DNA of 10,775 nucleotides, taken from the UHGV virus genome UHGV-1753860, one strand, 5' to 3'. Each line of letters opens with the position of its first letter. The first letter of the stretch is position 1. The translations under genes were made by a program, and so were the position numbers. Positions 285 to 4,898 of the stretch are shown here, piece after piece. This DNA comes from a virus. Under the pieces are notes generated by a model. That model was not told the DNA's origin. It saw only the letters and a program-made list of their open reading frames with translations, and did no database searches.

Positions 285-478
285 TATTATCTCCCGTATG
301 CTTTACGCAGAAATAAGCAGGCAATATGCATGTAATTTTCACCGTATTGTGCAATAAGGCAGGCGGTCTTGTGTGATGCCATATTCTTTATAAAAGTCAC
401 AATAAAGCCTCCTGTGGATTAAGGTTGTAACAATCCCCGGCGATAAAACCGCAATAAACGTTCAGGGCATATTTGTTG

Positions 479-844
479 TTATTGCGCTAATTCTTTTTCG
501 GCAGCAGCTTTTGTATACTCACATGCAAAACTCAGAATTTCGCTGCCGAGTGTTTTCGTTTCGTGATTACTGGACATATGTAATACCTGTGTTGCATGCA
601 ATAAATGATAAACATTTACCGCAAATGAATCAGGCTCCAGACAAATGCCTTCGTAATTATCTTGCTGTGAGGTTGTTTCTGTCATTGCTCCTGAAGTGCA
701 TGCGAGCCTGTTTTTGACAATTCTCTTTTCTCTAATCACTATATCGGCAACATCTATTGCCTTTACAACCTCCGGGAGAAGTTCCGGGTTTGTATAATCA
801 AAGTCATCAACATGGAGAACAGTTATGTTTTCGAACTTTTTCAT
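479..844 (-). CDS. Hypothetical protein, 121 aa, no motif I recognise; second gene of the leftward operon downstream of the repressor
   Basis: ORF in supplied track; minus-strand ATG at 844 preceded by GAGGAA Shine-Dalgarno; AT-rich relative to the replication genes; no obvious transmembrane segment or catalytic motif by eye. Confidence 0.6.
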   Translation of the reverse strand: MKKFENITVLHVDDFDYTNPELLPEVVKAIDVADIVIREKRIVKNRLACTSGAMTETTSQQDNYEGICLEPDSFAVNVYHLLHATQVLHMSSNHETKTLGSEILSFACEYTKAAAEKELAQ

Positions 845-972
845 GGCTTCCTCAGCTGACTTATATGTTCTGCTATATAGCGAGTCTCAGAAGTGTTTTC
901 ATATTGAGACTGTTTCCGCAATGATTGATAAAAATGTTCGCATGTACCTTGAAGGGCGAAGCGGCGATTATG

Positions 973-1476
973 TCACCATTGGTATTGGTTCTTCCGCAGA
1001 AGAGCTTCGCGAGATAAGGGGCAAACTTGTTGAGATGCGTCATGGTGTTGCTGCTCCTCACTTTTTGGTTGCTCCGGAGGAGTAACCTCACCAGTTAACA
1101 GCCACATCGGATCGCAGCCAAGAATATTTGCCAGTGGGATAAGCATACTGATAGTTGGTTCATACTCTCCGCTCTCCCACTGGATGATAATTTCTTCATC
1201 GAGATCGAGCAGCCTGGCGAGTTCGGCGGTTGTTAAGCCGCAGGCTTCGCGTTGGGTGCGAAGACGGTTGTTGATTGCAGAATTTTTGTTCTGTAAAAGC
1301 ATTGCTGACGATAGCTTTCTGGATATGCTATTTGTCATATCCCATGCCAGTCCTGCGCATGACTCTATATCGCTAGAGAGCGTAGCATCAGGTGTTGCTT
1401 TTGCTATTAGTGTAATGAGGCTGCCGAGGTTTTTCAGTTCTTCGAGACAGTCAAGAGTTGTAGCTTTATTGATCAT
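973..1476 (-). CDS. HTH-XRE family DNA-binding protein, 167 aa, with N-terminal extension of unknown function and a Pro/Glu/Gln-rich C-terminal tail
   Basis: Central segment RLRTQREACGLTTAELARLLDLDEEIIIQWESGEYEPTISMLIPLANILGCDPMWLL is a classic Cro/C1-type helix-turn-helix. Minus-strand ATG at 1476 with GAGG Shine-Dalgarno 10 nt upstream. First gene after the candidate leftward promoter. Confidence 0.8.
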   Translation of the reverse strand: MINKATTLDCLEELKNLGSLITLIAKATPDATLSSDIESCAGLAWDMTNSISRKLSSAMLLQNKNSAINNRLRTQREACGLTTAELARLLDLDEEIIIQWESGEYEPTISMLIPLANILGCDPMWLLTGEVTPPEQPKSEEQQHHDASQQVCPLSREALLRKNQYQW

Positions 1477-1481
1477 GAGAT

Positions 1482-1559
1482 GATACCTCAGTTACGAACT
1501 TTGTTTTATGGTAACTAAGGTATCAAGGCGTGGCAAGTGATTTTTGATACTTTGGTTTC
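1482..1559 (-). promoter_or_regulatory. oL-like operator cluster (three 14-bp sites) with candidate leftward promoter (pL-like)
   Basis: Sites GATACCTCAGTTAC (1482-1495), GTAACTAAGGTATC (1511-1524, inverted) and GATACTTTGGTTTC (1546-1559) share the motif found in the divergent region next to the repressor start; the third differs at one position from GATACTTTGGGTTC at 2285-2298. On the minus strand TTGCCA (1536-1531), 17-nt spacer, TACCAT (1513-1508) forms a sigma70-like promoter overlapping the middle site; the first site overlaps the ribosome-binding site of the 973-1476 gene. Confidence 0.55.
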
Positions 1560-1579
1560 TTTTTGTGTTTTGTGTCTGG

Positions 1580-2236
1580 TCAGAAAATATCCCACCTGGC
1601 ATCAACCACAACACCTACTATTTCGCAATCATTGTCCATTTCTATGATTGGATATTGTGGATTAAGGGGCTTTAGAAACGCCTTTCCCATGTCAGAAATA
1701 TATTTTTTGAATGTTGCTTCATTGGTAGATTTTTTTCTGGCGATGACGTAACACCCTGAAAAAACTTCTTTATCTGGGTTGACAAGGATCGACATTCCTT
1801 CAGGAAATGTTATTCCTACGGGCGAAGTCATTGAGTCTCCGTGCACTTCCAGCCAGAACCCCCTCTCACCAGCGTATTTTACAGAATGCCTCCAATTATC
1901 CTGATCATACATGTTGTAGTCATCACCAGAAGTTGCGAATAATCCTGCCTGAACCCAGTTAATTACAGGGTAAGAGTGTGCTGTGTCTCTCTGTGGGCAG
2001 CTCTTAACATTATTTTCCCAATGCTTATCTTTTTCATCTCCGTTCTGAAGCCACTGCGGTGAACACCGCAGTGCAGCTGCAACTTTAAAAAGGGTGTCAC
2101 CGTTGAAACTTTTTGTAAGGCCTTGCTCGGCTTTACTGATTGCAACTCTGGTGACCCCAGCTTTTTTAGCCAACGCATCTTGTGTTAACCCAGCTTTTTG
2201 CCGTGCGTTGATGAGACGTTCACCTAAAGACTTCAT
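1580..2236 (-). CDS. cI: Lambda CI-type prophage repressor (N-terminal HTH, C-terminal S24 LexA-like autopeptidase domain)
   Basis: N-terminal HTH (LGERLINARQKAGLTQDALAKKAGVTRVAISKAEQG); C-terminal HGDSM serine motif and ARKK lysine region; C-terminus FKKYISDMGKAFLKPLNPQYPII closely parallels lambda CI [23 protein letters not shown] as recalled. Start placed at ATG 2236 (MKSLGERL) because of the strong AGAGGAG Shine-Dalgarno; the longer track ORF reaching 2311 has no such signal. Confidence 0.93.
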   Translation of the reverse strand: MKSLGERLINARQKAGLTQDALAKKAGVTRVAISKAEQGLTKSFNGDTLFKVAAALRCSPQWLQNGDEKDKHWENNVKSCPQRDTAHSYPVINWVQAGLFATSGDDYNMYDQDNWRHSVKYAGERGFWLEVHGDSMTSPVGITFPEGMSILVNPDKEVFSGCYVIARKKSTNEATFKKYISDMGKAFLKPLNPQYPIIEMDNDCEIVGVVVDARWDIF

Positions 2237-2260
2237 TTTTCTTCTCCTCTCATGGCTGTT

Positions 2261-2330
2261 GATACTAAAGTAACAGAATTTCTTGATACTTTGGGTTCCT
2301 GTGGTTAACATCGTTGGATAACAAAGTATC
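2261..2330. promoter_or_regulatory. oR-like tripartite operator region with candidate divergent promoters (pR rightward, pRM leftward)
   Basis: Three 14-bp sites GATACTAAAGTAAC (2261-2274), GATACTTTGGGTTC (2285-2298), GATAACAAAGTATC (2317-2330) with the same motif as the oL-like cluster. Plus-strand TTGATA (2283-2288), 17 nt, TAACAT (2306-2311) is a plausible pR; a weaker minus-strand -10 (TAGTAT, complement of 2263-2268) could serve the repressor gene. Confidence 0.55.
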
Positions 2331-2347
2331 TGGTGTGAGACTAAAGA

Positions 2348-2575
2348 ATGACCCTTTATGAAATATTAAAAATTCAATTTAAAACCAATGCCGCTATTGG
2401 TCGCAGGTTCCCAAAGAAAGGAAGGCCTCGTGGCAGTCAAGGTGTTGGAAAGTGGAAAACGCGAGGTGTTCCGGAGGATGTTGCCATTCTTTGTCATCTG
2501 GATCCGAGCATTCCATATACACACCCAAGTCTAGCGAATACAGAAGATGACAAGCCCACAGGAGACCAACAATGA
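2348..2575 (+). CDS. Small basic hypothetical protein (75 aa) in the position where cro is expected; coding status uncertain
   Basis: ORF in supplied track begins 18 nt after the last operator site and its stop overlaps the next start (ATGA at 2572-2575), but the Shine-Dalgarno is weak and I see no recognisable Cro-type HTH. Confidence 0.25.
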   Translation: MTLYEILKIQFKTNAAIGRRFPKKGRPRGSQGVGKWKTRGVPEDVAILCHLDPSIPYTHPSLANTEDDKPTGDQQ

Positions 2576-3444: not shown

Positions 3445-3521
3445 GCACCTTATAAAGCGGGTGCCGGGGGTCGCAGCCCGGAATTGTCAACGGCGATATA
3501 TGACGCGCCAGCGTCTTTTTT
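3445..3521 (+). ncRNA. Candidate small RNA 1 (about 77 nt): conserved 5' block, hairpin, single-stranded seed GUCAACGG, intrinsic terminator
   Basis: Predicted start G3445; hairpin CCGGG/CCCGG (3464-3481); seed GTCAACGG (3486-3493); terminator GACGC-GCCA-GCGTC followed by T6 (3502-3521). Seed is perfectly complementary to CCGTTGAC at 3590-3597 and identical to GTCAACGG at 3669-3676, which overlaps the GGAGG ribosome-binding site of the Rha gene at 3688. Confidence 0.5.
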
Positions 3522-3687
3522 ATCGTCCGCGCTCACGCACGCCAGAATTATGGTGGGCTGGGCAGGGGAGCCGAAAGGCTCGCCGGTCTCCGTTGACGCC
3601 GGTACTGCGAACCCTGTTCAGTCTGCCACCAGTGAGTTTCGCAGCTCCGGTGGTGGAAGTTTTTCACTGTCAACGGAGGCTGCCATC

Positions 3688-4050
3688 ATGGCTACTGTCC
3701 TAACTTCCCCATTCCTAAAAATCGAAGTCGTCAACGGCAAGGCCGTTATTTTCTCCCTGCATGTTGCCTGCCATTTCAAGCGCATGCACCAGAACATCGT
3801 TGACAAAATCGAGTATCTGAACTGCTCACGCGAGTTTTTTACCCGCAATTTCATACCGGGTACTTATCACATCTACGGTGACTCCCTGCGTGGTTATTAC
3901 ATCACCCTTGATGGTCTGATGATGCTTCAGCTTGGGTTAAGTCTGCGCACAATGCGGTACTACGAGAGCTGTATTGAAGCATTCCATGAGGCTGAAACCG
4001 TCCAGGGTCACTCCGCGTTCCGTCGTAATCAACGGGAGGTGCACCTATGA
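3688..4050 (+). CDS. Rha-family phage regulatory protein (short, about 120 aa, Rha domain only)
   Basis: MATVLTSPFLKIEVVNGKAVIFSLHVACHFKRMHQNIVDKIEYL fits the Rha N-terminal pattern. ATG 3688 has GGAGG 9 nt upstream. The supplied track extends the frame to a TTG at 3484, but that start has no ribosome-binding site. Confidence 0.75.
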   Translation: MATVLTSPFLKIEVVNGKAVIFSLHVACHFKRMHQNIVDKIEYLNCSREFFTRNFIPGTYHIYGDSLRGYYITLDGLMMLQLGLSLRTMRYYESCIEAFHEAETVQGHSAFRRNQREVHL

Positions 4051-4898
4051 TCCGCCACCAGCATATTGATTCTGCAATTTCGGGACGTTACACTGTCTCC
4101 GCACCTTATAAAGCGGGTGCCGGGCGTGGAAACCCGAAATTCAATATAGAGCACAACCGCGCTCATGCGGTTTTTTCGTGTCATGAGCATCGTTACGCCC
4201 AAATTATGGTGGGACGTGCAGGGCCAACTTCGGTTGGGCCGGGTTCTATGTTGACCGGTATTTCCACCCCTGTACGTCTCACCACCTATATGGTCGTGGA
4301 AAGCCTTGGTGGTGAGTTCATTGAATTCAACATAGGGGCTGTCACCATGACTACTCTCCCAGCCCAATCTCACCCTGAAATCACGATTATCAATGGTCGC
4401 GTTGTCACCACATCTCTTGCAGTAGCTAATTACTTTACTAAACGGCATGAGCGGGTTTTAGATAGAATTAGAAACCTCGAATGTTCCGCTGAATTTACTG
4501 AACACAATTTTGTGTTAAGTGAATACACCGACGCATCAGGCCGCAAACTCCCTTGTTACCAAATCACCCGCGACGGTTTTGCGTTTCTTGCCATGGGCTT
4601 CACTGGTAAACGTGCTGCCCAGTTCAAAGAGGCATACATCAACGCCTTTAACCAGATGGAGAAGAATTTATCTGGTGCTGACGCGGTTGATATGTCAGCT
4701 GTCGCACGAAACGCCAGAGGCGTATACCTGCATTTGCGTGAAATCCATCAAATCTGGACAAGCCAGCTTTATCCAATGCTTAAGGCCGTTGAATCTCCGC
4801 TGGCTAGCAAACTGTACGACCGTGTTGGTGATGCTGTTTTTGGCGCTGCACTTGTTGATTCCAGGCTGAATGGTTCTGACAAGGAGGTTCGCCCATGA
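4047..4898 (+). CDS. Rha-family phage regulatory protein; start ambiguous between ATG 4047 (long, 283 aa) and ATG 4347 (Rha domain at the N-terminus, 183 aa)
   Basis: Rha motif VVTTSLAVANYFTKRHERVLDRIRNLE begins about 10 residues after M4347, which fits the family architecture. ATG 4047 has a strong GGAGG 7 nt upstream and overlaps the previous stop (ATGA), and the frame is open throughout, so a long isoform or coupled leader translation cannot be excluded. The 4047-4346 stretch also holds the small-RNA module 2 signals. Confidence 0.7.
   Translation: MIRHQHIDSAISGRYTVSAPYKAGAGRGNPKFNIEHNRAHAVFSCHEHRYAQIMVGRAGPTSVGPGSMLTGISTPVRLTTYMVVESLGGEFIEFNIGAVTMTTLPAQSHPEITIINGRVVTTSLAVANYFTKRHERVLDRIRNLECSAEFTEHNFVLSEYTDASGRKLPCYQITRDGFAFLAMGFTGKRAAQFKEAYINAFNQMEKNLSGADAVDMSAVARNARGVYLHLREIHQIWTSQLYPMLKAVESPLASKLYDRVGDAVFGAALVDSRLNGSDKEVRP
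4066..4094 (+). promoter_or_regulatory. Candidate sigma70 promoter of small-RNA module 2
   Basis: TTGATT (4066-4071), 17-nt spacer, TACACT (4089-4094); paralogous to 3410-3438. Confidence 0.45.
4101..4176 (+). ncRNA. Candidate small RNA 2 (about 76 nt): same architecture as small RNA 1 but with seed UCAAUAUAG
   Basis: Predicted start G4101; hairpin CGGG/CCCG (4121-4136); seed TCAATATAG (4141-4149); terminator ACCGC-GCTCAT-GCGGT followed by T6 (4156-4176). Seed pairs with CTATGTTGA at 4246-4254 (8 Watson-Crick pairs plus one G-U) and matches TCAACATAG at 4327-4335 next to the ribosome-binding site of the Rha start at 4347. Confidence 0.45.

Follow-up and report, generated by a model that had tools for sequence, protein, structure and literature searches.

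The DNA stretch analyzed here (10,775 nucleotides [nt], referred to as the window) is the immunity and replication region of a lambdoid prophage. Its repressor gene (1580-2236, minus strand) encodes a cI-type protein of 218 aa. To the left of this gene, on a single strand, the order is a gap of ~100 to 145 bp, a gene of a helix-turn-helix (HTH) family, small unknown genes, xis, and int. This order was kept in every close relative examined. In the window, the gap between the repressor stop codon (1580) and the ATG (1476) of the 167-aa HTH-family gene (973-1476, minus strand) measures 103 bp, and the region of interest, 1482-1559 (78 bases), lies within it. The second early-left gene (479-844, 121 aa, phrog_5451) is located on the same strand. 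To the right of the repressor gene are a cro-like gene (2348-2575), for which a Pfam search gave no match, Rha/Ash genes, replication genes, and the Q antiterminator.

The Stx2e phage phiP27 (NC_003356; L10-L11-L12) is 95.8% identical to the window over ~2.1 kb (window 410-2550), and the immunity regions of several Stx1a and Stx2a phages are ~86% identical to it. Among 5,426 complete E. coli genomes, 195 contain the segment 1400-2400 of the window.

Two tandem modules were detected on the plus strand (3445-3633 and 4101-4289), each comprising an isrK sRNA and, downstream of it, a C4 antisense RNA, with matches exceeding the Rfam gathering thresholds. Each module is located at the 5' end of an open reading frame (ORF) of the Ash or Ash+Rha type (3484-4050 and 4047-4898). 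The modules look like a duplicated secondary immunity system of the P1/P7 immI type (c4-ant) in a lambdoid prophage.

The repressor is a lambda cI homologue

Pfam domains HTH_3 and Peptidase_S24 were found in the repressor. It aligned to full-length lambda cI (3bdn) with E = 9e-34, and the alignment included a VQA-G sequence, the serine of GDSM, and the lysine of FKK. We take these to correspond to the Ala111-Gly112 cleavage site, Ser149, and Lys192 of lambda cI, respectively. Judged by its sequence, this protein is a true homologue of lambda cI that has kept the cleavage site and the catalytic residues. The pI of its N-terminal domain is 9.9.

The annotated start of the 218-aa protein at 2236 carries a GGAGAAG Shine-Dalgarno (SD) sequence. 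The reading frame is open further upstream to an ATG at 2311 (243 aa; additional part 2237-2311, minus strand), and this start is located within the oR/pR region described below. At 2052-2073, the repressor coding sequence contains a perfect 10-nt inverted repeat (CACTGCGGTG / CACCGCAGTG), the arms of which are 2 nt apart.

Operator-like sites flank the repressor gene on both sides

In the 103-bp gap, an imperfect palindrome of 14 bp, GATAC-N4-GTWWC, occurs three times; the copies are here named L1, L2, and L3. L1 (GATACCTCAGTTAC, 1482-1495) contains the SD sequence of the HTH gene (GAGG, 1486-1489, minus strand), which by sequence reading is located 9 nt before the ATG at 1476. L2 (GTAACTAAGGTATC, 1511-1524) is an inverted copy of L1, and the two match at 13/14 positions, the central four bases included. 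L3 (GATACTTTGGTTTC, 1546-1559) is located 20 bp after the cI stop codon and matches L1 at 10/14 positions. It differs by one base from the copy GATACTTTGGGTTC at 2285-2298, and the likeness between these two sites runs to 26 nt. The latter copy is the middle one of a second cluster, oR (2261-2330), in the interval separating the repressor gene from the cro-like gene; the other two oR copies are at 2261-2274 and 2317-2330. The center-to-center spacings are 29 and 35 bp in oL and 24 and 32 bp in oR. The earlier note had reported three motif copies in 1482-1559, one of them a single change away from the 2285-2298 site and one overlapping a Shine-Dalgarno sequence. All three observations were reproduced, with L3 as the near-identical copy and L1 as the overlapping one (GAGG, 1489-1486); the inversion of L2 had not been mentioned.

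We compared the frequency of the motif with that in shuffled sequences. The pattern GATACNNNNGTWWC, with at most one mismatch allowed, gave 12 strand-matches where 1.42 were expected, and 0/200 shuffles reached 12. Nine of these matches correspond to the six sites described above, which occupy the two intergenic regions on either side of the repressor gene. Because this pattern had been derived from the same data, a reciprocal cross-validation was performed, in which weight matrices built only from the oR sites or only from the oL sites were scanned over both strands of the 10.8-kb window. With the matrix from the three oR sites, the three oL sites outranked all sites outside both clusters, and the reverse test gave the same result.

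A predicted leftward promoter is conserved together with the operators

A promoter scan recovered the minus-strand promoter that the earlier note had proposed. This predicted pL (1508-1536) consists of a -35 hexamer TTGCCA (1536-1531), a 17-nt spacer, and a -10 hexamer TACCAT (1513-1508). Transcription would start at ~1500-1502, ~7 nt downstream of the -10 hexamer, giving a leader of ~24-26 nt to the ATG at 1476. L2 overlaps the -10 hexamer and the spacer, L1 corresponds to ~+6 to +19 of the predicted transcript, and L3 is located 10 bp upstream of the -35 hexamer. L2 is thus the only copy that overlaps a core promoter element; the other two lie outside, L1 downstream of the start and L3 upstream of the -35 hexamer. 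For the cro-like gene, the scan predicted pR on the plus strand (2283-2311; TTGATA, 17 nt, TAACAT). The repressor promoter pRM had no confident placement; its best -10 candidate was TAGTAT (2267-2262), with a poor -35 sequence.

The predicted pL matches the consensus at 9/12 positions, and the scan yielded 8 promoter-like sites versus 4.7 expected, so that the match alone is not significant. We therefore rely on conservation. In an alignment of seq­uences of seven intergenic regions (the window, phiP27, an Stx2a phage, three E. coli prophages, and one Salmonella prophage), 4 of 51 operator or hexamer columns vary, compared to 29 of 52 other intergenic columns (Fisher p = 1.5e-7, a value that is only indicative because the aligned sequences are related). 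L2 does not vary in this alignment. A set of 23 distinct variants, taken from viral contigs and genomes, shows no change in the -10 hexamer TACCAT (23/23) and only single-base changes in the -35 hexamer TTGCCA. In L1, one central-base transition occurs in 2/23 variants (four loci, L041, L108, and L110 among them). In L3, the GATAC half is invariant, and the center and the weak half vary. The assignment of the putative pL is supported by this conservation of its hexamers and not by match statistics.

The motif changes with the repressor type in relatives

In Serratia sp. Ag1 (L003), the cI protein of which is 51% identical, sites of the type GTAAAC-N4-GTTTAC were found in both intergenic regions flanking cI, and a promoter-like sequence TTGAAC-17-TACAGT is present at the oL position. 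Relatives with 43-47% identical cI proteins have sites of the type AAATTAAG-N-CTTAAATT flanking cI on either side. Further E. coli immunity types, L043 and L047, have their own repeats and a pL-like promoter match. This match is near-consensus in L043 (TTGACA-17-TAATAT), as it is in the L130 type, and weaker in L047 (TTGCCC-17-TATCGT). The motif thus tracks the repressor type across the family, which fits its being the operator of the repressor.

The relatives were also inspected for terminators. A canonical hairpin-plus-T-run terminator is located after the repressor gene and before oL/pL in Serratia L003 (3664-3703), in L043 (~2375-2400), with which L132 is grouped, and in L047 (~2370-2405); L131 has one after the repressor gene as well. 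In L130 (Stx2a-phage type), neither an obvious terminator after the repressor gene nor a hairpin like that described below for L2 and L1 is present.

The first early-left gene encodes an acidic protein with an HTH fold

The 167-aa product of gene 973-1476 is composed of an N-terminal helical hairpin, an HTH_3 domain (aa 68-128), and a conserved tail; this layout comes partly from an AF2 model with a mean pLDDT of 67. The Pfam score for HTH_3 is 43.3 bits (cutoff 23), and the modeled HTH domain superposes on the N-terminal domain of P22 c2 with an rmsd of 0.9 A over 63 columns. The HTH_3 domain has a pI of 4.18 and a net charge of -6, and its recognition helix begins with DLDEE. Because the domain is strongly acidic, ordinary DNA binding by the protein is doubtful. 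"HTH protein" is therefore the right term for the fold of this product, which, to go by its composition, may not bind DNA. The acidic HTH_3 stretch is nearly invariant in the family, which is unusual for a DNA-binding XRE domain.

A Foldseek search of the AF2 model against the PDB returned generic XRE domains only and nothing for the N-terminal helical hairpin. Pfam, NCBIfam, PHROGs, and the names given in the source provided generic labels only ("helix-turn-helix domain-containing," "CII-like regulator," and "DicA"), and no characterized homologue was found in these four resources.

In three related proteins (P0034, P0009, and P0093), the same N-terminal domain is followed by two tandem HTH_3 domains, and P0034 shares the C-terminal tail of the window protein. 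Because these relatives have tandem HTH domains, the window form looks like a one-repeat deletion between duplicated "CDPMWLLTG" motifs. The N-terminal domain differs by immunity type, and the HTH domain is ~85-97% identical across types, which places a mosaic joint inside the HTH gene. In phiP27, the HTH gene encodes 138 aa, compared to 167 aa in the window, and the C-terminal tail is different. In Serratia L003, the first early-left gene encodes a 70-aa stand-alone version of the N-terminal helical domain.

No terminator-like site was found in the scan between 973-1476 and the second gene, 479-844. Residues 57-121 of the second product resemble, by eye and by a weak phrog_4836 match, the N-terminal helical domain of the 230-aa HTH proteins of the P0093 type. 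The C-terminal half of this product may represent either a remnant or a free-standing copy of that domain.

A plus-strand ORF at 843-1085 was considered as a gene and rejected. It has a full-length match to phrog_6104 (E = 1e-49) and shares 113 nt with the 3' end of the HTH gene; its start codon overlaps that of 479-844, which is encoded on the opposite strand. Relative to L131, 9 of 15 substitutions are at third positions of the HTH-gene frame, and 8 of 12 are at second positions of the plus-strand frame. By this substitution pattern, the ORF is probably a recurrent misannotation.

The leader lacks nut-like elements, and no N-like gene was detected

Relatives with 43-47% identical cI proteins served as positive controls for N and nut. 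In these, a hairpin-plus-T-run terminator after cI is followed by oL/pL and then by a leader of 200-330 nt, and the distance from the cI stop codon to the next ORF is 245-360 nt. In the leaders of L117, L118, and L124, boxA/boxB-like elements can be read (e.g., GCTCTTAAAAA...GCGCTGAAAAAGCGC), and all three encode an Arg-rich N protein (that of L117 begins with MDAQARRRERRAEKQAEWKAAN).

In the window, no boxA with at most one mismatch was found in 973-1970, and Rfam revealed no RNA family at the pL leader. RNA starting at the predicted pL folds at -5.6 kcal/mol (z = +0.9), with no structure beyond that of shuffled sequence. An ORF with an Arg-rich N terminus was found neither in the left arm of the window nor in those of phiP27 and L042, a 100%-identical E. 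coli prophage with a left arm covered out to int; the controls L117 and L124 scored positive in this search. The earlier note had proposed a leader of ~24 nt without a nut site and a first early-left gene of the HTH type instead of an Arg-rich N-type antiterminator. Both proposals agree with the leader length of ~24-26 nt, the boxA search, the Pfam assignment, and the composition of the left arm.

The lack of N in this lineage has been described. In a comparison of Stx phages, P27 was the only one without N, and cII and cIII were not identified in it (PMC3430580). Other "Eru" Stx phages are likewise reported to lack N, CII, and CIII (PMC8044961). The oL/pL analyzed here is thus of the ordinary lambdoid kind, within an N-less phage lineage in which the absence of N was known before. 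In the literature other than the original phiP27 genome paper, our search found no operator or promoter analysis for the phiP27 immunity type.

L2 and L1 could pair in read-through RNA

We searched the interval from the end of cI (1580) to the start codon of the HTH gene (1476) for an intrinsic terminator and found none; this immunity type, with members in E. coli and Salmonella, has no such element after cI. The cI promoter may therefore contribute part of the leftward transcription. Such a read-through transcript would form a 15-bp hairpin (1481-1525, minus strand), because L2 and L1 are inverted copies of each other (13/14). The 5' arm of this potential hairpin (1511-1525) is derived from L2 and the 3' arm (1481-1495), including the SD sequence, from L1; the arms are 93% complementary. 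For the read-through RNA, the folding energy is -20.6 kcal/mol (z = -3.7), a value equaled by 0/200 shuffles. The hairpin is possible only in transcripts that start upstream of pL, since pL-initiated RNA is without the 5' arm.

Variation in the stem was analyzed in 17 distinct variants. Twelve of the 15 pairs are invariant, two change to G-U, and in one variant a pair is broken; compensatory double changes are absent. Because the stems double as operators, covariation is uninformative on this hairpin.

Weighing of alternative explanations

Taken together, the motif on both sides of a lambda-cI-family repressor gene, the conserved elements, and the family-wide pattern bear out the view of the earlier note that the region is the oL/pL equivalent. 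The 78 bases at 1482-1559 are very probably the oL/pL of a phiP27-type E. coli lambdoid prophage, with repressor binding and the transcription start site predicted. A different reading is that not cI but another protein recognizes the motif, be it the HTH protein or only the cro-like protein, and that the region is not under repressor control. Cro proteins of lambdoid phages use the same operators as cI. However, within the family, a different cI type comes with a different motif on either side of its gene, and the HTH protein cannot be the determinant of specificity, because its acidic HTH domain is ~90% identical across types with different motifs. We therefore give this reading very little credence. 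Hardly more can be said for the view that there is no independent pL, according to which expression of 973-1476 and 479-844 depends entirely on read-through from the cI promoter, like that of rexAB in lambda. It is just as improbable that, as this view also holds, the three oL sites serve only looping or cooperativity with oR. The missing terminator-like structure between 1580 and 1476 and a promoter match of just 9/12 are in its favor. However, both hexamers are kept while the spacers drift, and in other immunity types a terminator is followed by a promoter-like match (near-consensus in L043) and then by the same gene family. In addition, the SD sequence would be occluded in the read-through RNA, and the left arm, with xis, int, and other lytic-phase functions, should be silent in lysogens.

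The pairing of L2 with L1 is compatible with the oL/pL explanation and would add an RNA layer to it rather than replace it. According to this proposal, read-through RNA from cI folds back and buries the SD sequence of the HTH gene, so that the gene is translated only from pL transcripts. Several observations point in this direction: the degree of complementarity of the arms, the contrast between the read-through RNA (z = -3.7) and the pL-start RNA (z = +0.9), and the agreement of L1 with L2 at 13/14 positions including the center, compared to only 10/14 for L1 and L3. Moreover, four other types with the same downstream gene family (L003, L043/L132, L047, and L131; Serratia L003 counted by way of the stand-alone N-terminal domain of this family) have a terminator after the repressor gene, and 3/4 of the observed stem substitutions retain pairing via G-U. 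On the other hand, operator function fully accounts for the conservation of the stem, in which compensatory double changes are absent, 12/15 pairs are constant, and one pair is lost in a single variant. L130 has neither an obvious terminator nor such a hairpin, and repressor bound at oL might itself already stop read-through. On balance, we consider this additional layer a tentative and somewhat doubtful proposal.

Discussion

We propose the following model for the oL/pL element. In a lysogen, dimers of the cI-family repressor (1580-2236) would fill the three 14-bp oL sites and silence the leftward sigma-70 promoter pL, with L2 covering the -10 hexamer and spacer, L1 covering +6 to +19, and L3 just upstream of the -35 hexamer. 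The same repressor, bound to the three oR sites ~0.75 kb away, would control pR and, presumably, the promoter of its own gene. Given that the C-terminal domain of the repressor is homologous to that of lambda cI, it is plausible that the repressor binds cooperatively and loops oL to oR; cooperativity is not assured, because the oL spacings (29 and 35 bp) are unlike the 23-24 bp of lambda. RecA-stimulated autocleavage of the repressor in the SOS response would allow pL to fire. The pL transcript, with its leader of ~24 nt, would then direct synthesis of the 167-aa HTH-fold protein, followed by the 121-aa protein and the left arm to xis and int, and this early-left transcription would proceed without N/nut antitermination. 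The cro-like protein probably binds the same operator sites.

The element would set the immunity specificity (GATAC-N4-GTATC) of a prophage group that includes phiP27 and Stx1a and Stx2a phages. In such Stx phages, toxin production and phage release are set by repressor control. The N-less design of the early-left operon is widespread and is documented here with internal positive controls. As a regulatory principle, the arrangement adds little beyond lambda, P22, 933W, and CP-933P; only the hairpin and the acidic HTH protein go beyond expectation. An unlikely idea combines the two: the two promoter-proximal operators would double as an RNA device, and the acidic XRE-fold protein would be a protein-binding or mimic factor, and not a DNA-binding regulator, that fills the slot of N. 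If this is true, synthesis of the first early-left protein is restricted to pL RNA, and the protein acts, for example, on a repressor or on a host target. The conserved, modular, acidic HTH-fold first gene is a reasonable target for functional work.

Comparison with known systems

The potential hairpin resembles the fold-back inhibition of IS10, in which an inverted repeat occludes the ribosome-binding site only in externally initiated transcripts. In both cases, the 5' arm lies upstream of the native start and the 3' arm over the ribosome-binding site. In contrast to IS10, the arms here double as repressor operators, and the resemblance is purely in silico. A first pL gene that is not an N antiterminator is presumably also present in HK022, which we take to be an N-independent lambdoid phage with Nun in the position of N. 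In HK022, put RNAs act in cis at positions downstream of the early promoters; the leader here is probably too short for an element of this type.

The closest general parallels are the oL-pL regions of lambda, P22, 434, and 933W, which likewise have copies of the oR motif beyond cI, overlapping the leftward early promoter, and a repressor homologous to cI that carries a RecA-type autocleavage site. Three operators per cluster are shared with lambda and P22. The operators here are of the 14-bp GATAC-N4-GTATC type, and their length is nearer to that of 434. In contrast to these four phages, the first gene here is not N, nutL is missing, and the leader measures ~24 nt instead of hundreds; one operator is located downstream of the start and none on the -35 hexamer. 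Moreover, lambda has rexAB and a terminator between cI and pL, whereas no terminator is found at this position in the window.

In the cryptic lambdoid prophage CP-933P, PL with OL1-3 is repressed by analogues of cI and Cro according to reporter assays; N is not mentioned in the sections on this switch (PMC8630535). This E. coli lambdoid system is similar in its predicted PL (PL933P), its three OR-like operators, and downstream genes without known function (PMC8630535). It differs in that the repressor PaaR2 of its PaaR2-YdaS-YdaT module is not an S24 peptidase, in contrast to the lambda cI homologue here, and in its operator motif; the first downstream gene here encodes an HTH_3-fold protein. 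The nearest match is phiP27, the operators, promoter, and repressor of which are the same as those of the window.
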